Shown piece by piece: positions 7,975 through 55,800 of a stretch of DNA of 56,778 nt. The DNA is taken from contig CACFIX010000006.1 in assembly GCA_902566515.1 (NCBI GenBank), positions 1-56,778 of the forward strand. The letters are read 5' to 3'. The position numbers and the translations under genes were made by a program. This DNA is from an uncultured Candidatus Actinomarina sp. (GTDB lineage Bacteria; Actinomycetota; Acidimicrobiia; Actinomarinales; Actinomarinaceae). Positions within the stretch are counted from its first letter, which is position 1; each line of letters starts with the position of its first letter. Below the pieces are notes generated by a model, which did not search any database, was not told where the DNA came from, and worked only from the letters and a program-made list of their open reading frames with translations.

Positions 7975-8426
7975 TATTTTGTTTCAGGTATTACTTCTAA
8001 AGTTGTTTCAAATTTTGTATCTGGACCTAATACAACTGAAATTGTATGTAGCCCTATTTCTTTAACTTGATTTACCATATAAATTTGCTCAGCTTCTAAT
8101 CTAAATCCAGAAAAAGTTTCTATAGCATCAACAATTTGTTCATTGCTAACTGCTGCATAAAGAGTTCCTTCATCTGTTGTAGTTTGAGATATTACAATGT
8201 TTGCATCGGCAAGCGCGGTTTTAATTGATTCAGCTAATTGATCATTAGCTTGTGTTTGCATTTCCCTTTTTTCTTGTAGTTTCTCTGCAAATTTTAGATT
8301 GCTTGTAGTAGCAACAATAGCAAGTTTTTTGGGTAGAAGATAGTTTCTAGCGTATCCTTTAGCTACATCAACCACATCCCCTTTCCTTCCGAGGGACTTC
8401 ACATCAGAGTTAAGAATGAGTTTCAT
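7974..8426 (-). CDS. rplI: 50S ribosomal protein L9
   Basis: [21 protein letters not shown]. Confidence 0.97.
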
Positions 8427-8704
8427 CTTCTGTTGTAACTTTGCTTATATGAACTTGTAGTTACATAAGGTAGTAAGGCTAGTTCTCTGGCAACTTTGAT
8501 TAGACGTGCTACTTTTGCTTGTTCTTGCTTTGTAATTCCTGTAATTAAACTAGATCTAATCTTCCCTCTATCAGAAACAAATTTCTCTAACAACTTAACG
8601 TCTTTGTAAGTAGCATTTTCTATTTGTTGTTTTGTAATTCTTCTTTGTTTAGGAGCTTCATATTTTGAAGACCTTCTTCCACTAGTTTTTTTTCCATTTG
8701 CCAT
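8423..8704 (-). CDS. rpsR: 30S ribosomal protein S18 (Cys-free form)
   Basis: [17 protein letters not shown]...ARELALLPY; operon position. Confidence 0.95.
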
Positions 8705-8715
8705 AATAAATCTCC

Positions 8716-9141
8716 TTAAAACGGTGGTGCGTCTTCTTCAAAATTTTCTCTGGCTACTGGTTCTGAATTAAACTCTTGTCGGTTAACTGAAGCTGAAGCA
8801 AACCTTAAGCTAGGAGATATTTCATCTATAACTATTTGAACTTTTGAACGATTATTTCCTTCTTGATCTTGCCAAGAGGAATAATTAAGCTTTCCAACAA
8901 TTACAACTCTCATACCCTTTGTTATCGTTACATTTGCATTATCAGCTAAGTCTCCAAAGGCAACACCACTAAAATATTGTGGATCATCCTCAACATTTTC
9001 CCATTGATTTGTATCACGATTAAATTTTCGTTTTTTTGGACCTGCGAAGTTAACTTCTAAAACAGACATTCCTGTTCCTGTTTTTCTTAATTCTGGATCC
9101 ATTGTTACGGTTCCAACAATTGTTATTGCGTTATCTGCCAT
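8716..9141 (-). CDS. ssb: Single-stranded DNA-binding protein
   Basis: [20 protein letters not shown] and acidic PPF C-terminus. Confidence 0.95.
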
Positions 9142-9512: not shown

Positions 9513-10376
9513 CTATGACAGAATTTTTTTAATTTCTTTTTTCCACTCTTTAAGTGAATCTTGAATATCAGTACCCATATCATAGGAATGTTCTTCACTT
9601 GGAAAGTCAGAATTTTCTATATCTTTTTTATATTCAACCAGTGCTTTAACTGTTGAATCATATTGCTCACCATATCTCTTAACAAATTTAGCATCAATGT
9701 ATTCTTTAGATTTCATGCCGATGAGATCATGGATTACAAGAACTTGTCCATCTGTATGCTTTCCAGCACCTATGCCAATTGTTGGTATTGTTAAATTCTC
9801 TGATATAGATTGAGCAACAATAGTAGGAACTCCTTCTAACACAATTGCAAAACATCCTGTTTCTTGTAAAAGAAGAGCATCTTCAAAAAGTTTTTTAGCT
9901 AGATCTAGGGTTTTACCTTGAATTTTGTAACCCCCCATTAAGTTTTTTGATTGTGGCGTTAAACCCAAATGACCCATCACTGGAATTTCAGCATCTATTA
10001 ATGCATTTATAACTTCTTTTCTTTTTTCTCCGCCCTCTACTTTTACAGCATCTGCTTTACCTTCTTGTATGAATCTTCCAGCGTTTTTCAATGAATCAGA
10101 AATATTTATGTGATATGACAAATAAGGCATATCTGCAACAACTAATGAAGACGGGCTGGCATTCGTGACCGCTTTTACATGGTGTAGCATTTCATCAACA
10201 GTCACAGATAGTGTATCGTCATGACCTAAAACAACCTGTGCTAAAGAATCACCAACTAAAATAATGTCAATTTCGGCTTCTGAAACTGCTTTTGCAGTTG
10301 GATAATCATAAGCAGTCATCATGGAGATAACTCGATTGCCTTTTAAGTTATTAATATAAGGTACTGTTTTTTTCAT
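9513..10376 (-). CDS. panB: 3-methyl-2-oxobutanoate hydroxymethyltransferase
   Basis: TAYDY, LVGDSL, ADMPY, VKVEGG, GHLGLTPQ, IGIGAG, DGQVLV. Confidence 0.97.
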   Translation of the reverse strand: MKKTVPYINNLKGNRVISMMTAYDYPTAKAVSEAEIDIILVGDSLAQVVLGHDDTLSVTVDEMLHHVKAVTNASPSSLVVADMPYLSYHINISDSLKNAGRFIQEGKADAVKVEGGEKRKEVINALIDAEIPVMGHLGLTPQSKNLMGGYKIQGKTLDLAKKLFEDALLLQETGCFAIVLEGVPTIVAQSISENLTIPTIGIGAGKHTDGQVLVIHDLIGMKSKEYIDAKFVKRYGEQYDSTVKALVEYKKDIENSDFPSEEHSYDMGTDIQDSLKEWKKEIKKILS

Positions 10377-10497
10377 TTTCCTCTCTCCGCTTTAATAAGT
10401 CGAAGGATTCATATCTATTCTATTAAATTTTTATTATTAAACAAGATACTTATTGATATGATTTATTATTTCTAAACATTGCCAATAACATCAAGAT

Positions 10498-11103
10498 GTG
10501 AGTTATTTAAAATATTTATTCTTATTAATATTTATATCATGTTCAGTAACTAGCCCAGGAATTGTAATGAATGACAATGGATACGAAAAAGCTTATTTTG
10601 CCGGTGGTTGCTTTTGGTGTATGGAGCCTCCATTCGAAGCAATGGAAGGTGTGATTGAAGCCACATCGGGATATATGGGAGGTACTACAGAAAATCCTAC
10701 ATATGAGGAGGTCACTACAGGCGAGACTGGACATGCAGAAGTAGTAGAAATCTTATTTGATCCTAAAATTGTTACATATGAAGAGTTGTTAGAAGTGTTC
10801 TGGAGAAATATTGATCCAACAGCATTGAATTATCAATTTGCAGATGTTGGGTCACAATATAGAACTGAGATCTTTACAGTTGGCAGTGAACAGAAAGATT
10901 TAGCCGAACAATCTAAAGTCGAATTAGAAAATTCAGGTAAATTTAATAAACCAATTGTGACTGCAATTTCAGAAGCACCTGCATTTTATATCGCTGAAGA
11001 ATATCATCAGGATTTTTATAAAAAGCAAAGTATGCGTTATCAAATGTATGCAAAAGCCAGCGGAAGAAAAGGGTTTCTCGAAGACACATGGGGAGAAGAC
11101 TAA
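10498..11103 (+). CDS. msrA: Peptide-methionine (S)-S-oxide reductase with lipoprotein-like signal
   Basis: FAGGCFWC, GYMGG, TGHAE, AEEYHQDFY; N-terminal hydrophobic stretch ending ISC. Confidence 0.95.
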   Translation: MSYLKYLFLLIFISCSVTSPGIVMNDNGYEKAYFAGGCFWCMEPPFEAMEGVIEATSGYMGGTTENPTYEEVTTGETGHAEVVEILFDPKIVTYEELLEVFWRNIDPTALNYQFADVGSQYRTEIFTVGSEQKDLAEQSKVELENSGKFNKPIVTAISEAPAFYIAEEYHQDFYKKQSMRYQMYAKASGRKGFLEDTWGED

Positions 11104-33516: not shown

Positions 33517-34997
33517 TTTCCTTCTTTTAGTATTTCTTCGACTGTTTTTAATCCTTTTTGGAAGTCAACTAAACCCTTCCATCCACTTTGTTGTGGACTG
33601 CACATGGGTTTTTTGTTGGAATCATATTCTGAGTAAAGTTCTTTATTTAGTTCAAGCTCCTCGATTACCTGATAACTGTACATATTGTCTCTAAGTTTTT
33701 GATCATATAAAAGTCTCAATTGCATTAAATCTATTTCTGTAAAATAGGGCGTTGTATGTGCGTAATCTGCATAAGACATCACTGAATATCTACATAAATT
33801 ATGACCTAATCCTAGAGCATGACCTAATTCATGTATAAGTATATGTTCCCTAGTAGAACTACCATACTGTGAGTCAACCCAAATCCATCCAAACTTTGCT
33901 TCATCAAAGCGATTATGTGAATGGTAAAATAACCCAGCATATTTACCTTTACAGTCATTAACTAGTTCTGAAAATCTTTTTGTACAGTTTGCAAAATGTA
34001 TTGGTAAATTCACATCATCAGCATTGTCAGAATACGAAATCTGTAATTGTGGGGCAACAATATTTAGTATATGTAATATATTATTCACAGCAGTGAGGTC
34101 AGTTTGTTTTACATTACCAAAAAGACCTAATACGACCTCTCCGTGTAGTCTGTGTTTTTGAGAAATATATTCATCAACATATTTATCTTCTTTTTCAAAA
34201 TTTACAAAATCATATTTTACATCTTTATTAAGCAAAGCGAGGGCAGCTTCATGAGGTTCAGGTAAGGTTTTGTGTAATTCTTTTAGTTGTAATTTTTGGA
34301 AATATTGATTTAAATACTCATCTTCTCCAATGTCTCGAACATCATAATTTTTTTCAAAAAAAGGACTTATTGTGTTTTTTTCGTAAAATACTGATAAATT
34401 TTCAATGTTTTCATAATTTAATTTGTTAATTTTTAAAAAAGTAGACTTATAGCAATCATCTAACTTTTTTGAGCTCGCAATTAAGTCTAATTTCCAGTCA
34501 GTTACTAAATATGTATATTTAGTATCCAATCCGTTAAAAAGGTTTAGCTGTATTTCATGTTCTTTTTTACTTATGTTTAAACGTTTTTGAAAAATTGAGT
34601 GCATATGAAAAGCATTTTTTGACGTCCTATAACTTAGAGTTGTTGGTTTAGCTACAATCTCAACTGATTTAATACCAGTTTCCCTTGGAGAGGAGGGAAA
34701 GGTAAGAATAATATTTTTTCTATCTGGAGCTATTTCTGCTTTTACTTCAGACCAAAACGTTTCGTCAGAACATATATTGTTATCGAATTGTTCAATGTCT
34801 GTCCAGCTAGTTAAAGGGTTATTAACTTGATTGTTAAGTTTTTCATCTAAAACTAGTGGTTTTTCTTGACTTTGAACACCAAGCACATATTCACCATACC
34901 AATTCATATGTTGAATAGTTGTAGATAGCTGACCAACGGCGAATATTGACCAGTAAAATATCCAAGCCATTGCGAAACCTAACAGTTTATCTGACAC
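33513..34997 (-). CDS. Exported metzincin-type (M10/matrixin-like) metallopeptidase
   Basis: HELGHALGLGH plus Met-turn SVMSY; N-terminal hydrophobic segment. Confidence 0.8.
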   Translation of the reverse strand: MSDKLLGFAMAWIFYWSIFAVGQLSTTIQHMNWYGEYVLGVQSQEKPLVLDEKLNNQVNNPLTSWTDIEQFDNNICSDETFWSEVKAEIAPDRKNIILTFPSSPRETGIKSVEIVAKPTTLSYRTSKNAFHMHSIFQKRLNISKKEHEIQLNLFNGLDTKYTYLVTDWKLDLIASSKKLDDCYKSTFLKINKLNYENIENLSVFYEKNTISPFFEKNYDVRDIGEDEYLNQYFQKLQLKELHKTLPEPHEAALALLNKDVKYDFVNFEKEDKYVDEYISQKHRLHGEVVLGLFGNVKQTDLTAVNNILHILNIVAPQLQISYSDNADDVNLPIHFANCTKRFSELVNDCKGKYAGLFYHSHNRFDEAKFGWIWVDSQYGSSTREHILIHELGHALGLGHNLCRYSVMSYADYAHTTPYFTEIDLMQLRLLYDQKLRDNMYSYQVIEELELNKELYSEYDSNKKPMCSPQQSGWKGLVDFQKGLKTVEEILKEGN

Positions 34998-35611
34998 TAT
35001 TTATTCACCCACTCCAAAATTTCTTTTGATAGTTTTTTGCCTCCAATATGAGAAGGTTCTATTGGATTTGCATAATCCTCAGGAGAAGTAAAAATATTTC
35101 TCAACTCTAAAACATCTGTGTTAAAAGTAGAAGCAGTGCTAAATACAATGTCATTAAACATCGAAACCATTGCCTTTGAGGCAAATGCAACATCTGAGTA
35201 GAACGAATCTCCTACTAAATTGCCTTCGTATACTGTGCACAACAAAAGATTAGGGTTTTGCTGAGACAGATTTTGGACAATGGTTCGATATCTATTTTTA
35301 ATTGGTGCCAGCAATACAACTGCTTGTTCTAATATCTCAATAGCAGTGAGTTCAATGTTGTTTTTTAGAAATCCTAAATGTCCTAACAGATCATTTCCGC
35401 CAATGGAAAGTACATTGTGTGTAGTAAGTTTGCTGTTAACTTCATCAAGCTGATGCTCTATAACGTCACTTGTTGTATGTCCATCAACTGCTAATTGATT
35501 AAAAACATACCCAGACTGATCTTCAAGATGTTCTTTGACGCTGAACTCTCCTGGTTGAACATAGACTTTATTATCAATAATGCTGTCTCCTAACAAACTT
35601 ATATAGGACAT
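34997..35611 (-). CDS. SGNH/GDSL hydrolase
   Basis: LLGDS, DG, SIGGND; the DxxH block reads NPIEPS. Confidence 0.85.
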   Translation of the reverse strand: MSYISLLGDSIIDNKVYVQPGEFSVKEHLEDQSGYVFNQLAVDGHTTSDVIEHQLDEVNSKLTTHNVLSIGGNDLLGHLGFLKNNIELTAIEILEQAVVLLAPIKNRYRTIVQNLSQQNPNLLLCTVYEGNLVGDSFYSDVAFASKAMVSMFNDIVFSTASTFNTDVLELRNIFTSPEDYANPIEPSHIGGKKLSKEILEWVNK

Positions 35612-35613
35612 AT

Positions 35614-35709
35614 TTATACTTTTTCCTTCTCTTTATCTGGGATTGGAGCAGTTTCAGGTTCTGGTACTGGAACGGCCTCAATTATTCTTACTGGTTTTCC
35701 TATTTCCAT
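35614..35709 (-). CDS. 31-aa Pro/Glu-rich micropeptide (not in ORF track)
   Basis: MEIGKPVRIIEAVPVPEPETAPIPDKEKEKV; AAGGA RBS; stop 2 nt before the next ATG. Confidence 0.65.
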   Translation of the reverse strand: MEIGKPVRIIEAVPVPEPETAPIPDKEKEKV

Positions 35710-35736
35710 TTTTTATCCTTTCTTTTGAGTATTTAT

Positions 35737-37074
35737 TTAAATTTCAAATACTTCATTTAAGTTTTTATTTATATCAATAAAATTTTCTAAGTATGAGAAC
35801 AATTCTGGAAACCATCTCTTTGGTTCTAATCCTTGTATTCTTTTATAGTTTCTTAGAAACAATCTGAGGTTAAGATCAAATAAGTCTGGATTGTCACTAG
35901 TAGCTGTTAATCCATTATTACATTTAGTTATACATTCATATAGGCTAAGAAAAGCAAATATTTTTTCTTGATATGCACGACAGTTGTCTTCTACATTATT
36001 ATAAAAAAAATCGTCTTCCAAGTTTTTTCTTAATAAATTTCCAAAAGTTACATCTTGGTTCTTTACCCGCCTGATACGACCTGAATCTGATAGTGGAATG
36101 ATTTTTCTTATTTCATCCAAATCTGGATTTGGTTGCTTTTTTAAAAGTTTGTTTGATATCAGTACAGTGTCTGCAATACCCCTAAGCCTCTCACTTATAT
36201 ATAAATCTTTTTCAAAAGACAAATAGCCATTATCCCAATCTGGTGGATTAAATAAATTAATATCAATTGGATTATTTTTATCAACATTAACTAGCATTTC
36301 AAAACTACATCCATATAGTTTTGAAATGCTTTTTATATAACTATTCAAAAAATCAAGCCAAACTATTGTTGAATGTATAACTTCTGAATTATCTTTATCT
36401 AAAAATTTGCCTAGCTCTTGTGAGATTGTATTAAGTTCAAAAAAGTTAATTAATAAAAATAATTTTTTTGCTTCTACTTTTTGTGACCTATATCCTTTTT
36501 CACATTCAATGATTTTTCCACTTAATGCCACTTCGCTTAAAAGTGGAAATTCTTTTAATTCAAGAGTCTTCATTGCGGGACTGTAAAAAAATAGTTCTGC
36601 ATAAGCTTTTTGTGAATCAGTACTCAAAGCCAATAATGAATTATATATATTTCTATAAAAATTATTAATTAAATTTTGAGTACTGTCGTGAGAAAAGGAG
36701 GTGTAACGACGTCCCTTAGCACCAAATTCTTTAACTGAGTAATAACCACAACTACAGTATGGATCTGGCGCAGGATGGTTATTGTAATAACAGGTTGCTT
36801 GTTGGCTCCATGGCTTCATGTGATCATAAAGATTATTTATTGAATTTGTAGGAGGTGGTGATAAATTAAATTTATTCCAACTTTGAGAGCTTCCAGCACC
36901 TCTTGTTTTTAAACCAGTTTCAACATCAAATAACCACGTTCTATAGGACGTAATTTCGTTAGGTACAAGAAGTGTTTCAATAACAGAGGGGTTGCATAAC
37001 GTACAAACAACACCATGATGATTTCTTTTTTGCGAATTGAAGTCATTACATTTACAGTTATTTACATTATTCAT
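35737..37074 (-). CDS. Hypothetical protein with H-x-AP-x3-C-x-CG-x-Y metal motif (actinobacterial/actinophage-type family)
   Basis: YRTW, CYYNNHPAPDPYCSCGYYS, EVALSGKIIE..GYRS; start moved to ATG 37074 because of TAATG coupling. Confidence 0.75.
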   Translation of the reverse strand: MNNVNNCKCNDFNSQKRNHHGVVCTLCNPSVIETLLVPNEITSYRTWLFDVETGLKTRGAGSSQSWNKFNLSPPPTNSINNLYDHMKPWSQQATCYYNNHPAPDPYCSCGYYSVKEFGAKGRRYTSFSHDSTQNLINNFYRNIYNSLLALSTDSQKAYAELFFYSPAMKTLELKEFPLLSEVALSGKIIECEKGYRSQKVEAKKLFLLINFFELNTISQELGKFLDKDNSEVIHSTIVWLDFLNSYIKSISKLYGCSFEMLVNVDKNNPIDINLFNPPDWDNGYLSFEKDLYISERLRGIADTVLISNKLLKKQPNPDLDEIRKIIPLSDSGRIRRVKNQDVTFGNLLRKNLEDDFFYNNVEDNCRAYQEKIFAFLSLYECITKCNNGLTATSDNPDLFDLNLRLFLRNYKRIQGLEPKRWFPELFSYLENFIDINKNLNEVFEI

Positions 37075-37307
37075 TAATACTTTCTCCCTACATGACCTAT
37101 ATGGAATAATCCGCAAAATCTGCATTGATACTCGCTAATTAATGTATTAGTACGCTTTCTTGCACGATATGCTTTTGTTTTAGCCATTTCTATTGTGTGA
37201 TACTTCATTTTTCTTCTACAACTCCAACACTCATAACAAAGACAGGTTGATCCATTTACCATAGACCAACACAACGCTGGTCTATTGGAAGTACGCGTTT
37301 TCATCAC
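37074..37307 (-). CDS. Small phage-type zinc-finger protein
   Basis: C..K..Y....A and Y.CxxCG.FHIGH pattern. Confidence 0.7.
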   Translation of the reverse strand: MMKTRTSNRPALCWSMVNGSTCLCYECWSCRRKMKYHTIEMAKTKAYRARKRTNTLISEYQCRFCGLFHIGHVGRKY

Positions 37308-37319
37308 TGCAGCCCTTCT

Positions 37320-37403
37320 TTTTAGTGATTTTGACCAATATTATATATGTTTTTGGTGATTATGACAAATAAAAATATCTTTTTTTTGTATTTTTCACTA
37401 ATA
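37320..37403. promoter_or_regulatory. Three NrtR-type operators overlapping divergent promoters
   Basis: GT-N7-AC cores in AT-rich imperfect palindromes at 37325, 37356 and 37388; minus-strand TTGTCA-17-TATAAT promoter overlaps the middle site. Confidence 0.7.
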
Positions 37404-37426
37404 ATAAGATTCTTTATAATTATGTT

Positions 37427-38251
37427 ATGGGTGTGAGTGAGAGATTTCCAGTATCTCTAAATGCAGTGAATATTGTTTGCTTTAGGGTTGACTGGGAAGA
37501 GAGAATGTTAAATGTTCTTCTATTAAAGAGGAGTATTTCTCCACAAAAGAATAAATGGTCGCTTCCTGGTGGTTTTGTACAAGGAGATGAAACCCTAGAA
37601 GAGGCCGCAAGAAGAATCTTCGTTAATGAGACTGGTATCTCCCCTGCATATTTAAACCAGTTTAGGTCTTATAGCGACATTAAAAGAGATAAGCGTGTTG
37701 TCAATCAACGATCTGGCCAAAAAGCACGTGTAGTAACAACTGCGTTTACTGCTATTTACACAAGTGATGAAGAGCTACAGCTAGATGAAGAGAGCGAAGA
37801 TATTAGATGGTTTAAGATTCCAAGACGTTATTTCAGTAGGTATATACCTGAAGATATGGCTTTTGATCATCATGACATGTTGCTGGAAGCTTCTAATAGA
37901 CTTCGAATATCCTTAGAATATAGTGGTTTAGCTACTCGTTTCTTGCCGAAATACTTTACATTGGGCCAAATCCAGGATATTTATGAGATTATTTGGGAGG
38001 TAGAGTTAGATCCTGCAAACTTTAGAGAGAAGCTCACCAATGTTGAGGGTTGGATTAAAGAGTCTAAATCTGGACCAAAAGATGCTGAGCCTAGAAGAGG
38101 AAAGCCTCCAACTTGGTACAAAGAGCACGATATTCCACAGTTTGATAGGATGATTACCAATCCAAATGGTGCTGTTATTAGAGAGAAAGAGTCAGAGTAT
38201 CAAAAAAACTTAGATAATCTAACTGGTGATATTCCAACAGTTAAAAATTAA
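37427..38251 (+). CDS. nrtR: NrtR-family Nudix/winged-HTH transcriptional regulator
   Basis: WSLPGGFV, degenerate Nudix box (AARRIFVNETG), MAFDH, FTL..Q..YE, NFR, RGKP. Confidence 0.88.
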   Translation: MGVSERFPVSLNAVNIVCFRVDWEERMLNVLLLKRSISPQKNKWSLPGGFVQGDETLEEAARRIFVNETGISPAYLNQFRSYSDIKRDKRVVNQRSGQKARVVTTAFTAIYTSDEELQLDEESEDIRWFKIPRRYFSRYIPEDMAFDHHDMLLEASNRLRISLEYSGLATRFLPKYFTLGQIQDIYEIIWEVELDPANFREKLTNVEGWIKESKSGPKDAEPRRGKPPTWYKEHDIPQFDRMITNPNGAVIREKESEYQKNLDNLTGDIPTVKN

Positions 38252-38260
38252 GTTAATTAA

Positions 38261-39100
38261 ATGAGTTGCATAACAAACGAAACAATAGACAGATTAGAAG
38301 CAAAACTTAGTGTTGTTTTTACTGGAAATCCAAAACACTTACATGAAGCAGCAGCCGGAATAGTTTATGCATGCTTGAAATACGAAATCAATATAAACAA
38401 ACTTTTAGAAGAAGTCGAAAGCGGTGCTGCGTTTAATTTAGAGGAGTTTTGGGAATCTACTGAAGGTAACCTTTTAACATATCTAAAAAATGATTATAGA
38501 TTAATAGCACAAGATATAATCAATATTACTGCTGGTGGAACTGGTGGTATGGCATCGGTTGGTAAAGGAGAATTCTTTATTTCATTTTTTAGTGACTTTA
38601 AAATAAAAATTATTACTAGTAACGGTGACGTTTCGTATAAAGGAAAGAACGAAGAGGTGAAGTATAACGGCGGCAAGATTGCTGTTAGTCATATTGATGG
38701 GAGTGAAGTTTATAGTACATTTACAGAATTGATTGAAAATTCCGAAATTCAAATTATAAAAGAAGATTTTGTTCCAACTAGAAAAGCAGATATTGATGAG
38801 TATTCTACTGAAGATTACAATAAACTGCTTGGATACTACTGGCAAGCAATTTCAGGAAGTAGTCAAAGCATTACTTCAAGGAATGAATTTTTTCTACTTT
38901 GTCTTGAAAAAGCATTGGACCATGAATTTCAAACAATTGACTCATTATTAGTAATATCAGAGAAAAACAATTTTGTAAGATTTAACAATAAAACTGAGGC
39001 ATATAACTACTACTCCGAAAAACCCAAATTACTTAGAAAGTGGGAGATAAGAACAAAGCAAAAAAACCCGGTTGCAATGTATGTAAAGTTAGAGGAATAA
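38261..39100 (+). CDS. Putative PD-(D/E)XK nuclease (restriction endonuclease-like)
   Basis: GKGEFF...GDV...EVK..GG pattern; convergent with the methyltransferase. Confidence 0.55.
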   Translation: MSCITNETIDRLEAKLSVVFTGNPKHLHEAAAGIVYACLKYEININKLLEEVESGAAFNLEEFWESTEGNLLTYLKNDYRLIAQDIINITAGGTGGMASVGKGEFFISFFSDFKIKIITSNGDVSYKGKNEEVKYNGGKIAVSHIDGSEVYSTFTELIENSEIQIIKEDFVPTRKADIDEYSTEDYNKLLGYYWQAISGSSQSITSRNEFFLLCLEKALDHEFQTIDSLLVISEKNNFVRFNNKTEAYNYYSEKPKLLRKWEIRTKQKNPVAMYVKLEE

Positions 39101-48758: not shown

Positions 48759-49085
48759 CAAAATAACCTGTGAAGTCTTCCCCCAAAGTTCTCACTAATT
48801 ATTTGAAGATATAATCTCCTCGTAATCATTGTACAAATCAGTATTTTGGAATGCATTAAAAAAACTATATTTTCACAAACTGAGATCTTTTGTGAAAATA
48901 AAATCACAATCTTGCAAGGTTGTGAAGAAGAAATTATAATGTATTTAAGGGTCAATCACGTGTATGCGTTGAAAATCACTCAAACACACTTCCATAGGTG
49001 GTTGACCTATGCCCAAAGTAGTAGCTTCTAAATTTTATTTGTGACATATTTTTTTATTTTTATAAAGATGATTTATATTTATAAA

Positions 49086-49577
49086 ATGAAAGGTTTTAAC
49101 TCATCTAGTAGTCAGGTATTTTCTCAAAAACCTGACGAGTTATGGAATGCTATTTCAAAAGAAAATAATCTAAACGATACACATCCATTTTGTAAAGAAA
49201 ATGAAATATTAGTTTGGAACGAAGAAAACCATATAGATAAACTCGTATACTTAAATGGCCTCACATTTATCAGAGAGTTTTCAGAATGGTTTGAGGGTAT
49301 TGGTTATAATTTGTGGATTGGAACAAAACGTGGTCCAAAGTCTTATGTTGAATGGAGAATTACAGAGCATTGTCTAGGATCCGAGTTAAAAATAACTGTA
49401 TACCCTTTCTTCTTTAGAAAATGGCCTAAGTTTATTGCTTTTCTACCATATTATTTATACATAAACCCTAAATTAACATCTTATTTAAATTCTGTTGTAG
49501 GAGGTTTTAAATGGTACCTAGATGAAGGAACAGCAGTACCTAGAAACCATTTTGGAAAACATCGCTGGTTTTCATAA
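49086..49577 (+). CDS. SRPBCC/START-like protein
   Basis: LWNAIS...L...HPFC and a C-terminal helix (L..V..G.KWY); start likely MKGFN at 49086. Confidence 0.6.
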   Translation: MKGFNSSSSQVFSQKPDELWNAISKENNLNDTHPFCKENEILVWNEENHIDKLVYLNGLTFIREFSEWFEGIGYNLWIGTKRGPKSYVEWRITEHCLGSELKITVYPFFFRKWPKFIAFLPYYLYINPKLTSYLNSVVGGFKWYLDEGTAVPRNHFGKHRWFS

Positions 49578-49616: not shown

Positions 49617-49988
49617 TTACCCTCTCCTTTCTTCTAGTTTTATAATCGCCCGATTCTTATCAGGTCCTTTCATAATCATTTTTGCCATCATGCCATATTT
49701 TTTCCTGATTATATCTGCAGCATGCTTTTTCATATCCGCATCCTCTATAAGAGATGCTTTTAGATCGAGGCTTTCTGATAACTTTTTTGAGCCGTTTTGG
49801 TTAGTAATATAAATTGTTGCTTTACCGTTGTTTCTAACCCTCTTTACTTTTCCAGCGTTAAGGCTTGTTGTTACAACTAATGAGTTTGAAAAATCTGCAA
49901 CCCATACCGGTGTTGTGATAGGCGTTTTGTCTTTTTTGTATGTGATTAGATTTATGTATTCGACATCTGAAAAATCTTTTAAATTCAT
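49617..49988 (-). CDS. PPOX-class F420-dependent oxidoreductase (Rv2061-like)
   Basis: Y..L.TYKK...TPVW, GKVKRVRNN, KKYG. Confidence 0.85.
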   Translation of the reverse strand: MNLKDFSDVEYINLITYKKDKTPITTPVWVADFSNSLVVTTSLNAGKVKRVRNNGKATIYITNQNGSKKLSESLDLKASLIEDADMKKHAADIIRKKYGMMAKMIMKGPDKNRAIIKLEERRG

Positions 49989-49997
49989 AAATTCAGT

Positions 49998-50123
49998 TTA
50001 AAGATAATTTAATAAAAGTTCAGGAAGTTGTTTTAATCTTCTTGCTGTGTCATCTTCAGAAAAAAGTATATAGAGAAGCAACAAAATAAGTATTACTCTT
50101 GTAAGTGTTATTTTTCTGAACAT
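49998..50123 (-). CDS. 41-aa single-TM peptide (not in ORF track)
   Basis: MFRKITLTRVILILLLLYILFSEDDTARRLKQLPELLLNYL; ends 9 nt before the PPOX gene start. Confidence 0.45.
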   Translation of the reverse strand: MFRKITLTRVILILLLLYILFSEDDTARRLKQLPELLLNYL

Positions 50124-50149: not shown

Positions 50150-50184
50150 AAAAAAAAGGGATTTTATAAAAAATCCCTTTTTTT
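50150..50184. terminator. Intrinsic terminator closing the paralog operon
   Basis: AAAAAAAAGGGATTTT-ATAA-AAAATCCCTTTTTTT. Confidence 0.75.
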
Positions 50185-50209
50185 CTATTCGTTATCTGTC
50201 CACTTAGAT

Positions 50210-50845
50210 TTATGTTGGAGTATCTCCCTCATTAAAATCAATAAACAACTTACCTGCATACACAGGTCCCATATAAGCTACAGTGCTTCCATCAAACATT
50301 TCAGACTCTGATTCACTATCTAGTGCTGCTTGTAATTTTTCAACAGCTACATTCATTTCTTCCTCAGAATCCCAGAAGTTCCAACTAATAGCACTACTTC
50401 CGTCAAAAACTGCCCCTGTTACTTGAAGGCCTTCAGACTCTTCATAAATTGGTTCTACTTTTTCTTTGAGAAAGCTCAATACTGCGTCTGTGTCTTTTGC
50501 AACACCAACAACCAACCTCAAATAGCTTGGTCTTGTACTGTCCTTAGCCATAGTTTGATAGACCTTACCATAAACTGCATCCCCTTGATAAATTACAGGA
50601 GGTGCTGACATCATTCCAGCTGCTTCTGATAATACTCCTTGTATTTTTTCTTCCACGGCTTCTACAGCTTCCTTACTTTCATAAGCAGCCAAATTAACGC
50701 CAGAAGTCTCCCCTGTAATAGCAGCCATCATCGTCAGAAGTCCGGGTGTGCCATCAAACTCAGGCATAACTTTTTCTTTAACAAAAGATATGGCTTCGTC
50801 TTTTTTTCCATCCTGAAGAGATGGAATCGTTATTCTAAAGTACAT
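50210..50845 (-). CDS. Double ABM-like barrel protein, paralog 3
   Basis: Two internal repeats (R...G..D...F....V.P.....G...W.S.E); C-terminal FIDFNEG. Confidence 0.75.
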   Translation of the reverse strand: MYFRITIPSLQDGKKDEAISFVKEKVMPEFDGTPGLLTMMAAITGETSGVNLAAYESKEAVEAVEEKIQGVLSEAAGMMSAPPVIYQGDAVYGKVYQTMAKDSTRPSYLRLVVGVAKDTDAVLSFLKEKVEPIYEESEGLQVTGAVFDGSSAISWNFWDSEEEMNVAVEKLQAALDSESESEMFDGSTVAYMGPVYAGKLFIDFNEGDTPT

Positions 50846-50859
50846 AATTTCCTTTCTTT

Positions 50860-51504
50860 TTAGTTAATTGATTTCCCTGCTTTAAAGTCGGTAAATTGCC
50901 TCCTAGCAAACGGTTCACCATAGTAATCTGTAAATCCATCCATTAGTGGCATGAATTTTTCGTATACATTTTCATCAGTATTCAGTTTTTCATCAAAACT
51001 GTGCTTTGCATCATGTGAAGTCCAAAACTCAAACAAAACAAGTGTTTTATCATCAATTTTAATTGATCCGTAAGAAATAATTCCCTCATCCTTTTCCAGT
51101 TTTGGTAGATAAATTTCTTTTTGAAGATTTATATATTCGTCAGCATTTTTTACATCCAACTTTGCGAATGCCAAAAACAAAGAATCTCTTGGTTCTTCAA
51201 CTAGGGAGTCCTTTAGGGTCTTGCCAGTAAATAGTTCACCTTCATAAACCCTTGGAAAACTAGCAAGCAGATCTTGAATTTGCATCAAGTTCTCATTTCT
51301 AATTTGTGCAAACTTATCTGCGGTCTCTTTGTCCTTCATAAATGCAATACCTAGATTTACATTATCTTTTGGATTAAAAAAGGCTATTGAATGCAAATCT
51401 CCTTTGAGGACCTCTAAAGCTGGGAAGCCTGTGTTTTCAAAAAACTCTTTGAGTTCATCAAGCTTCCCATCTTGAAATAAAATACTAACTGCTACTGCAT
51501 ACAT
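50860..51504 (-). CDS. Double ABM-like barrel protein, paralog 2
   Basis: Same two-repeat layout (QDGKLDE, FWTSHDA); C-terminal FTDFKAG. Confidence 0.75.
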   Translation of the reverse strand: MYAVAVSILFQDGKLDELKEFFENTGFPALEVLKGDLHSIAFFNPKDNVNLGIAFMKDKETADKFAQIRNENLMQIQDLLASFPRVYEGELFTGKTLKDSLVEEPRDSLFLAFAKLDVKNADEYINLQKEIYLPKLEKDEGIISYGSIKIDDKTLVLFEFWTSHDAKHSFDEKLNTDENVYEKFMPLMDGFTDYYGEPFARRQFTDFKAGKSIN

Positions 51505-51516
51505 TTGTTTTATTTT

Positions 51517-52149
51517 TTACTCTACGGAGTAATTTCCTATTGCATCCCCAACACCGAGAATAAATAGTGGATATAGGATTACCCCTCCAAGAACAAATAA
51601 ACCAGCAAATGCTGCTGCTGGAATAATTCCAAAAAGTGTTAATGCTTGAGCTGGAATTATTATTACCGCAAAAATAATTCCTACAGTTTGTGTTCTGTTA
51701 CTTAATTGGTTTCCTCTTCTTTTATCAGTTCTGACTAGCAAATACACATACATTCCATAAAAGAAAAAGACAGTATTTGTAAATGAACCTGAAATTGCAC
51801 CAACGGTATCAGGATCTAACACGGTATCAAACACACTGTAATAATTAAATACTGCACCAAGAGCAAATAACATTTGTACTGTCACGCTAACAAATAAAAC
51901 ATTATGCATATGTGACAGATCAAATGTTTGCTTAACATCAAATACTACATAAATGCCCATAAGAACACCTGTTGTCAAAAACGCAATAACAAAGTTTAAA
52001 ATTGCAGTTATTGGTCCATAGGTTGGGTCAAATCCAACAGAGTCTGGTCCAACAACAACAGCAATAATTACAAAATTAGCTAGAACTAAAGCTGCAATTA
52101 CTCTTGTGATTGCTTTTAAGTTTTTAATTTCATCTTTAAATGTTTCCAT
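51517..52149 (-). CDS. Six-TM membrane protein, family A copy 2
   Basis: S.GFD...G.I.A.LN and LGGVILYP shared with 52862. Confidence 0.75.
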   Translation of the reverse strand: METFKDEIKNLKAITRVIAALVLANFVIIAVVVGPDSVGFDPTYGPITAILNFVIAFLTTGVLMGIYVVFDVKQTFDLSHMHNVLFVSVTVQMLFALGAVFNYYSVFDTVLDPDTVGAISGSFTNTVFFFYGMYVYLLVRTDKRRGNQLSNRTQTVGIIFAVIIIPAQALTLFGIIPAAAFAGLFVLGGVILYPLFILGVGDAIGNYSVE

Positions 52150-52161
52150 TTATATTCCTTT

Positions 52162-52803
52162 CTAAAGTTTTCCAACAGGAAAATCAACGTAGTTTCTCCA
52201 TAAATCACACTGACCAGTTATTTCTTGCGGTGGTTCTGAAATAAGGTTTGCAACCGCATCTGAAACAACAGATGCAATAACATCAGATGCCGCATGTGCA
52301 GCATCATGATCTGTCCAAAAATTGAAACTAAACCCTTTATCTTCAGCTACTTTACAAGCACCTGTTCCATAAATTCCTTCGACATTTTCATAGGCTGGAT
52401 AAACAGTGTTTGTCATAAACTCTGCAACATCATCATAGGTTTTACCCTCTTGAGTTCCTCCGCCTAAAACAAATCTGGCAAAAAATCCATCTTCACCATC
52501 TTTGGAAACTGCAATGTACTGCTGTCCAGCAACCATGGTGCCTTCCATGACTTCTGGCTGGCCATCAAGCATCTCTGCCGCACCTGCTAAAGCCTGGTTA
52601 AATTTATCGATTGAAGCTTCTTTAGCCTCTTCATTAGCCCAAGTAGACCATGCCATAAATCTTCCGTCATTTGTCGCACATGCTGCTATTCCTAATAGCC
52701 CTGAAATTCCATCATAAGATGGCATTACAGTATTTTTGACATATTCAAGGGTATTATCCATTTCACCCTCTTTTACGTCTGCAAGAGTTAGTCTTACAAA
52801 CAT
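52162..52803 (-). CDS. Double ABM-like barrel protein, paralog 1
   Basis: MFVR...EG.MD, VMP.YDG..G, NFWTDHDA; C-terminal YVDFPVG; GGAGG RBS. Confidence 0.75.
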   Translation of the reverse strand: MFVRLTLADVKEGEMDNTLEYVKNTVMPSYDGISGLLGIAACATNDGRFMAWSTWANEEAKEASIDKFNQALAGAAEMLDGQPEVMEGTMVAGQQYIAVSKDGEDGFFARFVLGGGTQEGKTYDDVAEFMTNTVYPAYENVEGIYGTGACKVAEDKGFSFNFWTDHDAAHAASDVIASVVSDAVANLISEPPQEITGQCDLWRNYVDFPVGKL

Positions 52804-52861
52804 TTTTTACCTCCTAACATTACTATGTCAGTTAAGTATGTTTACAAAGCCCCATTTCTGC

Positions 52862-53476
52862 TCACGCTTTAGAAAACGCCGAGGAGAATGAAAATATAAA
52901 TGCTGGAAACAAAACAACTCCTCCTAAGACTGCTATCAAGATAAAAGCACCATCAGGCAAAAGTCCAAATATGCTCCCAATAGAAAACACTAATATTAAA
53001 ACGGCTCCGCCCCAACCAGCATAAACTCCATAAGATGGCAGCTGACCTTCATTTACTGAAAGTACACAAAGTACTACAATTCCAGCTAGTAAGTTCCAAC
53101 CCCATGCATTTACATTCTGAAGTATCTGTATTTGATCAGGTGTAAAGATTGTTCCTTCGTTGTTAAAGTACCCAGTTGCATTAAAGCTGTTTACCATGTT
53201 TATTGCTATTACTACAAAAAATGCTTGCGTAACAACTCTAAAGTATGCATTCTCTTCAGCGTTGAAAAGCTTAAGCGAGAATGCAAGTACAAACAAAAAA
53301 GAAAATGCTTGTGCATAATTTAAAGTTGCGACTATTCCTCCCGTTGCTGAATCATAACCAGCACTTCCTGGGTCTCCCAGAGCAACTTGTACTCCAAAAG
53401 ATAGAAATATACATGCCGCAGATATGCGAGCCATGAGGCTTCCTATTCTTTTTTCACTATCAGATAATGTATTCAT
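52862..53476 (-). CDS. Six-TM membrane protein, family A copy 1
   Basis: SAGYD...G.I.ATLN and LGGVVLFP. Confidence 0.75.
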   Translation of the reverse strand: MNTLSDSEKRIGSLMARISAACIFLSFGVQVALGDPGSAGYDSATGGIVATLNYAQAFSFLFVLAFSLKLFNAEENAYFRVVTQAFFVVIAINMVNSFNATGYFNNEGTIFTPDQIQILQNVNAWGWNLLAGIVVLCVLSVNEGQLPSYGVYAGWGGAVLILVFSIGSIFGLLPDGAFILIAVLGGVVLFPAFIFSFSSAFSKA

Positions 53477-53502
53477 CTTTTCCTTTCTAGTTTCTTTATT
53501 TT

Positions 53503-54075
53503 CTATTCCATTTCACTGCTTGAAGTCGATTTATCTCCCCAAGCAAAATAATTTCCTAAACTAAACCCAATTACAAGAAGAGACCATCCAGCGAACCCTA
53601 CTAGTTCAAAAGATTCTGGAATTTCAAAACTGAAAAATAAAGTTAGGGAAGCCCCTATAGTGAGAAAAAGTGCTCCAGCTATTGTTAGGTTTTCTAAAAT
53701 TGGCCTAAAGACACCATTTCCTCTAAGTGTAATACTATAGATTAATGAATTAAATGCCCAGAAAAAGTACATTGGCAAAAAGCCACCATCAAGATAGTCT
53801 GTGATTTCAAGAAATGTTCCAAGTATTATGACTGTAGCTAAAATTGTGTGAGCTGATCTCCAGTATTCTGGAACGTGGCCCTCAGCAAGATAGTAAGCCC
53901 CTATTATTATTGAAGCAAGAGAAAAACCCCAAACAAAGTTCAGTAAATCTTCTATTCCATCTAATGCAGTTATGCCAGAAAATTCTACAGCTATAAAAAC
54001 AACATTTATAGCTAGAAAAAGAATAGCATTTTGCCTTGATAAATTACCTATTGGTTGTGTAAAGAATGTTTTCAT
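53503..54075 (-). CDS. Six-TM membrane protein, family B copy 2
   Basis: QPI, N..WGFSL...IIG.Y.L....VPE.W, GNY.AW shared with 54094. Confidence 0.75.
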   Translation of the reverse strand: MKTFFTQPIGNLSRQNAILFLAINVVFIAVEFSGITALDGIEDLLNFVWGFSLASIIIGAYYLAEGHVPEYWRSAHTILATVIILGTFLEITDYLDGGFLPMYFFWAFNSLIYSITLRGNGVFRPILENLTIAGALFLTIGASLTLFFSFEIPESFELVGFAGWSLLVIGFSLGNYFAWGDKSTSSSEME

Positions 54076-54093
54076 TTTATTTCCTTCCTATTT

Positions 54094-54630
54094 TTAATTT
54101 TTGTTCCATGCGTCATAGTTTCCATAACCAACACCCACAGTGAATCCGACACCGATTAATAAAAATAACGGTTGTAGTGATTCTGGGAAGGTGTAGTCAA
54201 AGAAAATATCTGCACCTGTAAAAAGTAATCCGCATAAAGCTGCGGCTGCGGTCAAATACAAATATATTGGTTTATATATGCCTTCAGTAGCAAATGACCC
54301 AAATAATAAGTTAAAAAAGAAAAAGAAATAGAACGCAGTTGTGTCTATTTCTGGATTAGTAACCTCTAAACATTTAGCTAGAAGTACGACAGTTGCTAAT
54401 ATTGCACTTCCTGTCTTCCAAAATTCTGGTACTTGTTCTTTTGTTAGTTCATATTGACCAATAATCACTGCGGATAAACTGAATCCCCACATTAAATTTA
54501 CAAATATTGAGAATCCACCACCATCAAATCCAGTTCCTACTTCAGCTATCTGATATAGATTGCAGAAAATAAATACGAGTGACTGACTTTTAGCTTGAAC
54601 GCTGATCGGCTGTAAAGCAAAATTTTTCAA
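54094..54630 (-). CDS. Six-TM membrane protein, family B copy 1
   Basis: QPI, NLMWGFSL, VPEFW, GNYDAW; TTG start. Confidence 0.75.
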   Translation of the reverse strand: MKNFALQPISVQAKSQSLVFIFCNLYQIAEVGTGFDGGGFSIFVNLMWGFSLSAVIIGQYELTKEQVPEFWKTGSAILATVVLLAKCLEVTNPEIDTTAFYFFFFFNLLFGSFATEGIYKPIYLYLTAAAALCGLLFTGADIFFDYTFPESLQPLFLLIGVGFTVGVGYGNYDAWNKN

Positions 54631-54703
54631 AGATTAACCTACCTTCCATAAGTTCCGTTTATTAATTTATTTGCGTAATTTAACTTCCCTAAATTACATG
54701 GCC

Positions 54704-54767
54704 ATTCTACAAAATTTTTACTGGGCTTGTGTTGGATTTTGTTAAATTTGTGTAAAGTTTGTGTAAA
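54704..54767 (-). promoter_or_regulatory. Promoter with phased TTWACA direct repeats (OmpR/PhoB-type boxes)
   Basis: TTTACA (54767), TTTACA (54756), TTAACA (54745) at 11-bp period, CCAACA (54735); -10 TAGAAT at 54709. Confidence 0.6.
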
Positions 54768-54768
54768 T

Positions 54769-55800
54769 CTAGGACTTTTCGAAAACTAACGGTTTTACTT
54801 CTTGCCCGATGAGGGTAAATGTCTTAAGAAGGTCATCATGAGACAGACCAGCATTGTCTATTTGAAAAGTAAAGCGTGAAATGCCTCCCAAAGCCTTACT
54901 ATGTCGTACTAATTTCTCAGCAACTTCTTCTGGACCTCCAATAACATAAGCTCCTAAGTCACCAATTTGTTGTTCAAATCTCTCCATAGTAACTGGTGGC
55001 CAGCCACGCTCTTTGCCAATTTGGTTAAACCATACTCTATAACCCGGATAATATTTTTCCACTGCTTCTTCTTTTGTGTTTGCCACAAAACCAAGTGAGT
55101 GAAGTCCTATTTTCAAGGAAGATTTTTCATGACCTGCCTCTTCAGCTGCTTTATAGTAAAGATCAACTAACGGCTTAAACCTATGTGTCTCACCTCCAAT
55201 TACAGCAATCATAAGAGGTAGGCCTAAGGAACCTGCTCGCACAAATGATGCGGGAGTTCCTCCAACACCTACCCATATTGGTAATTTTTTTTGAACAGGC
55301 CTCGGATAAACAATCTGATTTTCTAAAGATGGTCTAAATCTTCCAGACCAAGTAACTTGTTGTTCATCTCTAATTTTCAAAAGAAGATCAAGTTTCTCAG
55401 CATAGAGGTCATCATAATCATTAAAGTCAAGTCCAAATAAAGGAAAAGCCTCAGTAAAGGAGCCTCTACCTGCGACTATTTCTGCTCTGCCGTTAGAAAT
55501 CAAATCTAATGTTGAGTAATTTTGAAATAATCTTACTGGATCCATTGCACTAATTACTGCGACTGCACTAGTTAATCGAATACTATCTGTTTTTGATGCC
55601 GCAGCTGAGAGTATATTATGTGCTGCAGAGTCTAGAAACTCTTCTCTATGGTGTTCCCCAAGACCAAAAACATCAATCCCAACTTTATCGGCATGTACAA
55701 TTCGTTCAATGAGCTCCGACATGGCCTTTGCATCATCGTCAACAGTGCCACCTTCATTTGTTAAAGTCTTCTTAGCAAAGGAGTCTATTCCTATTTCCAT
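54769..55800 (-). CDS. LLM-class flavin-dependent oxidoreductase
   Basis: GEHHR, LTSAV, DPVR.FQ, SNGRAE..GRG, RAG.LG.P. Confidence 0.92.
   Translation of the reverse strand: MEIGIDSFAKKTLTNEGGTVDDDAKAMSELIERIVHADKVGIDVFGLGEHHREEFLDSAAHNILSAAASKTDSIRLTSAVAVISAMDPVRLFQNYSTLDLISNGRAEIVAGRGSFTEAFPLFGLDFNDYDDLYAEKLDLLLKIRDEQQVTWSGRFRPSLENQIVYPRPVQKKLPIWVGVGGTPASFVRAGSLGLPLMIAVIGGETHRFKPLVDLYYKAAEEAGHEKSSLKIGLHSLGFVANTKEEAVEKYYPGYRVWFNQIGKERGWPPVTMERFEQQIGDLGAYVIGGPEEVAEKLVRHSKALGGISRFTFQIDNAGLSHDDLLKTFTLIGQEVKPLVFEKS

Follow-up and report, generated by a model that had tools for sequence, protein, structure and literature searches.

Proteins of the antibiotic biosynthesis monooxygenase (ABM) family include ActVA-Orf6, YgiN and IsdG/MhuD. 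The closest structures that we know of to the proteins considered here are 3mcs (FN1347), 3f44, 5f9p and 9kdp, each of ~210 residues in which two ferredoxin-like halves make up one pseudo-dimeric alpha+beta barrel. Two of these, 3mcs and 3f44, are entered in the PDB as 'putative monooxygenases' under titles that give no tested function, and none of the four is titled with a membrane partner. Here we analyse a seven-gene array that encodes barrels of the same build side by side with two families of membrane proteins, on a 56,778-nt contig (CACFIX010000006.1, the whole of which we call the window) from an uncultured Candidatus Actinomarina sp. (assembly GCA_902566515.1). The Actinomarina barrels are set apart from the four structures by a family-specific DFxxG tail.

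Actinomarina are described in the text of one recent study as among the smallest free-living cells and most abundant surface-ocean photoheterotrophs (bioRxiv 10.64898/2026.04.03.716425). A variable locus described for the order is the Actinomarinales flexible island fGI1, or hypervariable region, which in the text of the two sources keeps the same position with differing content and cassette exchange, spans 43-79 kb at a GC content of 28%, is bounded by tRNA genes and is linked to envelope sugars (PMC7771536; bioRxiv 10.64898/2026.04.03.716425). The array analysed here is likewise fixed in position, variable in content and exchanged between lineages. Unlike fGI1, it is 3-5.5 kb long, has an ordinary GC content (0.35-0.38) and consists of three or four protein families only; and where fGI1 is tRNA-bounded, the array lies between protein-coding M20 peptidase and PPOX genes (flanks not scanned for tRNA). 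The word 'monooxygenase' is absent from the text of both sources, whose supplementary tables may list the locus. We found no paper on an Actinomarina antibiotic biosynthesis monooxygenase, nor on a tandem ABM protein with a membrane partner. An earlier sequence-only reading of the window had called the system undescribed, and this holds: the system as such is described by none of the Pfam, NCBIfam, PADLOC or PDB entries searched and by no paper found.

We conclude that what the window carries is one variant of an accessory cassette array restricted to the Actinomarina family, and that its working unit is probably a small module of one membrane protein and one barrel rather than a seven-part machine.

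RESULTS

Seven genes of three paralogous families

Open reading frame (ORF) reading gave seven minus-strand genes across 50210-54630, in the order memB1, memB2, memA1, bar1, memA2, bar2, bar3 (Table 1). Both this order and the three sets of paralogs are as the sequence-only reading had them, the latter confirmed by BLASTP. Identity is 34% between memB1 and memB2 (E 1e-28), 26% between memA1 and memA2 (E 1e-14), and 31%, 23% and 25% for bar1/bar3, bar1/bar2 and bar2/bar3, respectively (E 4e-26, 2e-13 and 1e-12). By these values, paralogy in the three families (two memB, two memA and three barrel genes) is far above chance. The barrels also repeat internally, residues 1-69 of bar1 matching residues 109-175 of bar2 (E 7e-4, BLASTP).

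The genes are separated, from memB1 to bar3, by gaps of 18, 26, 58, 12, 12 and 14 bp, a tight spacing that makes the array operon-like. Six of the seven are preceded by a purine-rich, Shine-Dalgarno-like stretch and bar2 by none that is clear, such that the good ribosome-binding sites claimed for all of them hold for six. The TTG-initiated memB1 has an N-terminus, MKxF, that agrees with the invariant M1 and near-invariant F4 of the memB alignment. Six of the proteins belong to no Pfam or NCBIfam family; bar1 alone has a match, to ABM and below threshold. The genome that carries the window (0.84 Mb in 35 contigs, 69% complete) held no barrel copy beyond bar1, bar2 and bar3.

Table 1. Features of the array, its borders and the second site (positions are those of the window)
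Feature	Position	Strand	Product	Description
memB1	54094-54630	-	178 aa	TTG start; orphan polytopic membrane protein, memB family
memB2	53503-54075	-	190 aa	memB family
memA1	52862-53476	-	204 aa	orphan six-helix membrane protein, memA family
bar1	52162-52803	-	213 aa	single-chain tandem ABM (double ferredoxin-like) barrel; no signal peptide
memA2	51517-52149	-	210 aa	memA family
bar2	50860-51504	-	214 aa	tandem ABM barrel paralog
bar3	50210-50845	-	211 aa	tandem ABM barrel paralog; clade found here or at the panB-msrA site
A/T-flanked symmetric hairpin	50151-50184			terminator scan: 15 pairs, loop of 4, then T-run; terminator-like on both strands
Small hairpin	54675-54697	-		putative 5' leader; 9-bp stem, 5-nt loop
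TAGAAT	54704-54709	-		-10-like hexamer upstream of memB1; putative promoter element
Two exact adjacent TTTACACAAA copies	54747-54767	-		directly past the LLM stop codon
Empty second site	10377-10497			121-bp spacer from panB (9513-10376) to msrA (10498-11103); ORF table

Array content varies at a fixed chromosomal site

We compared the window with 20 other genomes, giving 21 loci whose genes were labelled with hidden Markov models of the three families. The memB, memA and barrel families are clustered together in all 21, in favour of membrane proteins and barrels belonging with one another. A PPOX-type gene closes the array in 21/21 loci, an M20 peptidase gene stands at the opposite end in 20/21, and a full-length LLM gene adjoins it in 10/21. 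Within these borders the content differs. The loci hold 47 memB, 30 memA and 49 barrel genes in total, with one to three memB, one or two memA and one to four barrels apiece, and the number of family genes runs from four (L024) to eight (L028 and L029). In the trees every family divides into at least four or five deep clades, and any one clade occurs in part of the genomes only. Some loci have extras: a soluble protein of 104-117 aa, an Acyl_transf_3 gene, a Pyridox_ox_2 gene or another unlabelled ORF.

BLASTP comparison of the single genes gave a different nearest relative for different parts of the array. Five genes flanking the array in the window are 98-100% identical to those of L028, bar2 is 95% identical to the copies of L028 and L029, and bar3 is 99% identical to that of L028. 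Against this same locus memA1, memA2 and memB1 reach only 25-36% identity and bar1 only 69%. The closest relatives of memA1 (97%) and bar1 (95%) are instead in L015, although the flanks of L015 are only 49-70% identical to those of the window. The nearest ortholog of memA2 is in L030 (91%) and that of memB2 in L027 (87%), whilst memB1 finds no closer relative among the 20 other loci than that of L024, at 65%. On these identities the array occupies a fixed site and is mosaic, made up of segments that divergent lineages have exchanged. Flexible islands are recognised by differing gene content at the same chromosomal site and by exchange of content between lineages, and both were found. The GC content over 50-56 kb (0.345-0.376) is not atypical of the window, which elsewhere varies from 0.305 to 0.385.

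The extra genes have features of their own. Six of the 21 loci (L015, L016, L024, L025, L026 and L034) have an Acyl_transf_3 membrane gene between the last barrel and the PPOX gene; the match has E 3e-18 for the copy at L016:2442-3554, the one that was scanned, and the other five loci have similar ORFs of 362-371 aa. All six lack the bar3 type, and second-site pairs (see below) were fetched for four of these genomes. The soluble proteins of 104-117 aa (L018:4530-4850, L051:5807-6121, L027:5267-5617 and L030:5799-6152) may be a fourth component. Two of them have sub-threshold NIPSNAP matches (20.4 and 17.8 bits, cut-off 22.3), and hhalign found no link to the tandem barrels (probability 0.2%). 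Beside the PPOX gene lies a plus-strand ORF of 178 aa (49041-49577) without a Pfam or NCBIfam family; 12 of the 20 other loci have it in the same place, 43-98% identical.

A barrel and a membrane gene also pair at a second site

In 10 genomes (L051-L060), a bar3-type barrel gene and a memA gene stand as a pair between panB and msrA, preceded in some of them by a 104-aa small protein. The second-site barrels group in the tree with the clade of the window's bar3. Where the main array of a second-site genome was compared, it lacked the bar3 type (5/5), and the genomes with bar3 in the main array gave no memA match outside it (12/12). Main arrays and second sites together supply 19 cases in which a bar3-type barrel and a memA gene are adjacent. 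The window is of the latter kind, with an empty second site (Table 1) whose flanks Pfam identifies as Pantoate_transf and PMSR. That a barrel relocates together with a membrane gene is our main argument that the working unit is a pair of a barrel and a membrane protein.

The surroundings of the second site are conserved, with a gene order of 452-148-94-141-95-287 aa upstream of panB kept in nine of the 10 loci; the remaining one, L059, ends before it. In the window a cytochrome P450 gene (13840-15039, plus strand; PF00067, E 6.6e-21) is only a few genes away from the empty site, notable in so small a genome. The minus-strand stretch 6613-9141 carries dnaB, L9 and ssb genes by Pfam, and near them are two small ORFs that resemble ribosomal proteins S18 and S6.

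The membrane families are confined to the Actinomarina family

Searches with single proteins found bar1 in 20 of 24 other genomes of the genus and in none of 16 from other families of the class, memB2 in 45 of 61 genus genomes and memA1 in 53 of 61, the last two counts including the window's own genome. Class-wide, a memA profile matched 56/64 other genomes of the family and 1/236 from other families, the single match (E 8.5e-4) containing an internal stop. Against 1.84 billion representatives the same profile gave 93 matches at E <= 0.001, only 13 of them of length 197-212 aa, and against a collection of 5.8 billion it gave 262 at E <= 0.01; the memB profile gave 164 in the same collection at the same threshold. 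Amongst the 120 matches listed for each family there is no Pfam domain, and the names given are 'hypothetical'. One memA homolog carries the source name 'Candidatus Actinomarina sp.', and the genomes of relatives are about 1 Mb. Judged by these searches, neither membrane family extends beyond the Actinomarina family. A memB homolog labelled 'Hellea sp.', an alphaproteobacterium, by NCBI (P0319, on 99 contigs) probably reflects a binning error in a metagenome-assembled genome, given the distribution of the family.

The barrels reach further. A phylum-wide search with the barrel profile matched 40/400 other genomes, nearly all of the matches covering one ABM half only, and those longer than 100 of the 211 positions came from three genomes of one genus. 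Five of the 40 genomes carry an unpublished flag, and nothing else that we claim depends on those five. A high-GC actinobacterium with a 5-Mb genome, G526, has several adjacent tandem-ABM genes of ~211 aa (L046, G526:C1:1238740-1242249; E 2.8e-16). These adjacent copies resemble the Actinomarina array, but the 3.5 kb examined contain no membrane-protein genes. Arrays of tandem-ABM paralogs thus exist outside Actinomarina.

Within the genus the array is accessory. The single-contig, 1.01-Mb genome G009 gave no barrel, memA or memB match. Between its M20 peptidase and PPOX genes (L062, G009:C1:39000-50500) are an LLM gene, a 1097-aa ORF and other ORFs. In genome G010, the stretch of about 3.9 kb that separates the LLM gene from the next recognisable gene (L061:3106-7011; C4, about 34600-38500) is without any ORF of at least 70 aa, although genomes of this type are described as about 97% coding, so that such a gap is unusual. 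This stretch contains a memA-like remnant with seven stops (three TGA and four TAG) and looks like a decayed array, an assembly error being possible.

The soluble proteins are diverged tandem ABM barrels

An AlphaFold2 model of bar1, made from the alignment of the 49 barrel family members, reached pLDDT 91.9 and pTM 0.87 and has the beta-alpha-beta (ferredoxin-like) unit twice. Foldseek returned 189 PDB matches at E <= 0.001, with tandem-ABM entries on top (TM 0.75-0.78). The best match was 3mcs (E 4e-12, TM 0.77), and the others included 3f44, the anthrone-oxidase-like 5f9p and PenE (9kdp); over these four the values ranged from E 4e-12 to 8e-11 and TM 0.61 to 0.78, at an identity of only 8-14%. 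Ranked lower were sulfur oxygenase reductase, chlorite-dismutase-like proteins and HmoB, whose structures matched with E about 1e-5 only and TM 0.50-0.52.

The sequence comparisons agree with the model. Although the three barrels of the window stay under the cut-off of the Pfam ABM family (PF03992), with bar1 at 19.8 bits against a required 23.1 and bar2 and bar3 without a match, 21 of the 49 family members match it at E <= 0.01 (best 4.6e-7), consistent with homology to ABM proteins. With hhalign, the barrel family aligned to the 211-aa tandem protein of G526 over 169 columns (97.7% probability, E 2e-12), and that protein is itself above the Pfam ABM threshold (34.8 bits). A search of PDB sequences with the barrel profile gave ABM-like matches that were weak (E 0.26); it also matched designed TPR proteins through an EGK..EA..Y stretch, which we regard as spurious. 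The bar1 model, Foldseek, the Pfam scan of the family and hhalign thus concur with the double ABM-like barrels of the sequence-only reading, and identify the soluble proteins as diverged, predicted two-lobed members of the ABM/dimeric alpha+beta barrel superfamily. Because the bar1 model begins at strand 1 and there is no signal peptide, we infer that the barrels are cytoplasmic.

Amongst the 49 barrels, the columns conserved in at least 90% are M1, G13, G35, L72, P83, G88, G93, K121, E139, G143, W163, G197, F208 and G211. The heme-degrading ABM enzymes IsdG, MhuD and HmoB use Asn-Trp-His catalytic residues and an axial His. A family-wide site of the IsdG type is unsupported, the conserved barrel columns having neither His nor Asn (judged by columns across the family and not paralog by paralog against IsdG). 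One metagenome source labels a bar1 homolog 'quinol monooxygenase YgiN', which is an automatic name and not a test. The motifs claimed earlier for all three families were present and fall on conserved columns: [FY]xDFxxG at the barrel C-termini, WGFSL, VPExW and GNYxAW in memB, and SxGxD and LGGVxLxP in memA.

The membrane proteins are six-helix orphans

The six helices claimed for the membrane proteins were modelled for memA1, where AlphaFold2 gave six long helices at pLDDT 88.8, and for memB are inferred from hydropathy and from profile alignment to memA. The memA and memB profiles align over 170 columns (81.8% probability, E 1e-5), suggesting that the two are remotely related and may form one superfamily. 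Neither profile matched a PDB sequence at E <= 10, and the memA1 model had no Foldseek match in the PDB at E <= 0.001, with no known small-molecule transporter or ECF S-component among the Foldseek rows. An exhaustive VIA structure search with memA1 scored best (Z 11.2) against designed helical proteins and G protein-coupled receptors (GPCRs), within the range typical of generic helical bundles. The sole small permease among its 50 rows is 5ys3, a succinate-acetate permease (Z 7.4). Like memA1, 5ys3, the GPCR-like bundles and the designed six-helix bundles are compact proteins of ~200 residues with six long helices, at Z values of the generic range only.

All five Lys/Arg residues in the termini and loops of memA1 are on the N-terminus, loop 2 and the C-terminus, and none is on the outer loops (inside and outside as assigned by us). 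This placement predicts an N-in/C-in topology, which would put the best-conserved memA motifs, GPDxVGYD and FGLIPD in loops 1 and 5, on the outside. On the cytoplasmic side, E8 and LPSWG are conserved in memA and VPExWR in memB, and the last memB helix has a GxxxGxxxA pattern that is typical of helix packing.

Pfam scanning of 30 memA and 47 memB members gave scattered weak matches, with no family in more than 5/30 or 6/47. The nearest named protein-atlas clusters for memA1 and memB2 were DUF4386 and DUF6796, at 0.76-0.88, under the 0.9 threshold for a lead. Neither of the two (PF14329 and PF20599) came up when the 30 memA members were scanned with Pfam at E <= 5, nor among the first 25 of the 33 Pfam families listed for the 47 memB members, and these scans thus gave the leads no confirmation. 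An extra 180-aa membrane ORF of L024 showed no link to memB (hhalign probability 5%).

Selection and representation in RNA libraries

Of 21 comparisons with the closest orthologs, 18 had an unsaturated dS, and in these the ratio of nonsynonymous to synonymous substitution rates (dN/dS) was 0.03-0.17; the saturated ones were the three of memB1. By gene, it was 0.11-0.17 for memB2, 0.03-0.13 for memA1, 0.06-0.09 for memA2, about 0.05 for bar1, 0.06-0.14 for bar2 and 0.03-0.10 for bar3. By this measure, purifying selection acts on the array genes.

Contigs from four marine metatranscriptome runs (four studies) cover 22-27 of 30 bins at an identity of at least 90%. Those listed bridge four of the six gene junctions (memB1/memB2, memA1/bar1, memA2/bar2 and bar2/bar3) and leave memB2/memA1 and bar1/memA2 unbridged, with loose contig ends at 53488/53507 and 52144-52168. 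Such ends would fit cassette boundaries and are not proof of them. Bins 54688-54858 and 49900-50070 were uncovered in three of the runs (X1, X2 and X4), holes that carry no weight as a finding. Contigs of this kind reveal neither strand nor single transcripts, and the libraries can contain DNA.

Signals and flanking genes

Where a terminator had been claimed at the end of the array, a terminator-like hairpin followed by a T-run was found (Table 1). The claim of a promoter of its own fared less evenly: a consensus scan found no promoter in the spacer 54631-54768, whereas the -10-like hexamer in it is conserved. In an alignment of the upstream regions of the window and of six loci with an LLM gene upstream, TAGAAT is kept in 6/7 and reads TAGACT in the seventh; transcription would be predicted to start just downstream of 54704. 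The same alignment shows a conserved ribosome-binding stretch, GGAAGGTAGG, upstream of memB1. The sequence of the putative leader hairpin is conserved amongst loci with the LLM gene upstream; folding of 54625-54700 gave -10.6 kcal/mol with z -1.74, which is weak. The upstream region matched no Rfam family, and the single sub-threshold Rfam match lies on the terminator hairpin.

The window contains 15 matches to TTTACACAAA where 15.5 are expected; the repeat is therefore not enriched, and we dismissed it as a shared regulatory motif. The ORF table also has no same-strand run as long as the 28.7-kb operon with which the array had been said to be co-regulated, and we see no support for that suggestion. 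The flanking genes are as stated in the sequence-only reading: the LLM gene (54769-55800) exceeds the TIGR03858 cut-off of 462 with 478.9 bits, and the PPOX-type gene (49617-49988), at 77.5 bits, falls short of the TIGR03666 cut-off of 84.9. A functional link to the LLM gene finds no support, as a full-length LLM gene adjoins the array in fewer than half of the loci (10/21) and the second site lies between panB and msrA.

DISCUSSION

How the modules might work

Copy numbers that vary, paralog clades that come and go, and a barrel/memA pair that moves argue for a module and not for a fixed machine. In the mechanism that we favour, uptake or retention of a small hydrophobic or aromatic molecule at the membrane would fall to a membrane protein that is predicted to be N-in/C-in, with its best-conserved motifs on acidic outer loops. 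A cytoplasmic barrel would bind this molecule and, in the manner of ABM proteins, oxygenate or isomerise it without a cofactor. Specificity would differ among the old paralogs, giving each strain its own repertoire. The description of the array is well supported; this mechanism we hold tentatively, at a probability of roughly one in three, and several observations weigh against it. Neither VIA nor Foldseek brings out a transporter fold for the memA1 model. Both membrane families conserve only Gly, Pro and aromatic residues and one Glu, with no polar residues inside helices, a pattern that reads as structural and not as catalytic or transport-like. In the barrels no His or Asn column reaches 90% conservation, and of the conserved columns only E139, W163 and K121 could plausibly be functional. 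The flanking oxidoreductases define no consistent pathway, with LLM at 10/21 loci and the second site amid housekeeping genes, and the absence of all three families from G009 means that the array is dispensable.

Other explanations would keep some of these observations and lose others. Were the chemistry endogenous to the membrane, the barrels would act on menaquinol, a carotenoid or a lipid, and the six-helix proteins would anchor them or present the substrate, in redox or stress homeostasis rather than nutrition. YgiN-type proteins are quinol monooxygenases, and the ABM fold of the barrels, the automatic YgiN label of a bar1 homolog, the PPOX-type, F420-like gene at 21/21 loci with its frequent LLM (10/21) or Pyridox_ox_2 companions and the Acyl_transf_3 membrane gene inserted in some arrays would all suit such a role. 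We nevertheless consider it unlikely, as housekeeping would leave unexplained both the near species-specific, exchanged repertoires and a single-contig genome without the array, and as the second site has no redox neighbours. A non-enzymatic role is prompted by the docking of PII on AmtB: by analogy, the barrels could be regulatory or chaperone subunits that bind a ligand and dock from the cytoplasm on small channels or carriers formed by memA and memB. The lack of a conserved, catalytic-looking His or Asn would then be expected, the cytoplasmic motifs E8 and LPSWG of memA and VPExWR of memB and the GxxxGxxxA pattern of the last memB helix would have a use, and the pairing of barrel and memA is indeed kept at two sites. 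The nearest structures are however enzymes or putative enzymes, no channel or carrier fold is recognised, and the counts of barrels and membrane proteins are uncoupled (for instance three memB, one memA and four barrels, or three, one and one), which makes this explanation quite doubtful.

The fixed site with variable content, and the nearly identical cassettes in lineages with flanks of 49-70% identity, also recall an arms race, in which the outer loops of memA and memB would be phage receptors or the genes immunity or defence cassettes, shuffled through frequency-dependent selection by phages or antagonists and not for the sake of substrate diversity. Divergent small paralogs set in arrays are a typical feature of immunity islands, and the best-conserved memA motifs are in the predicted outer loops. 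It is this last point that turns against phage receptors, which would be expected to diversify in just those loops. Moreover, eight proteins (the seven and the small accessory protein) matched no PADLOC family at E <= 0.1, the maps of the 21 + 10 loci showed no toxin, nuclease, recombinase or phage gene (with part of the unlabelled ORFs scanned), the GC content is not atypical and the cytoplasmic barrels are left without a part to play; we think an arms race improbable. Least credible of all, and in our judgement very improbable, is a single heteromeric membrane complex of all seven proteins, the fixed system that the sequence-only reading had proposed. The gaps of 12-58 bp, the one promoter-like region, the one terminator-like hairpin and the intact state of every paralog would fit such a complex. 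It does not accord with four (L024) to eight (L028 and L029) family genes per locus and copy numbers that vary in every family across the 21 loci, with the different inner gene set of the nearest relative by flanks (L028), or with the barrel/memA pair that stands alone as a two-gene version at the second site.

What the array means for Actinomarina

Extended from the cell to the population, the module of a membrane protein and a barrel may be of a new, two-part kind and be kept as a library of old paralog cassettes that are exchanged between species, with strains taking up and trapping, or sensing, different small organics; this is a speculative step, somewhat less likely than the mechanism itself. 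Actinomarina genomes hold only about 29-44 paralogs according to the text of one study (PMC7771536), and with so few an operon of seven paralogs is a large investment. Four of the seven proteins belong to families without detectable relatives outside the Actinomarina family and without a matching solved fold. Identifying the molecules on which the modules act could bring to light a new membrane-protein family and a new use of the ABM fold, and the function of the modules could help to explain how streamlined strains divide resources or pressures. If the library of cassettes is real, it would be a previously unseen route by which dissolved organic matter is partitioned.

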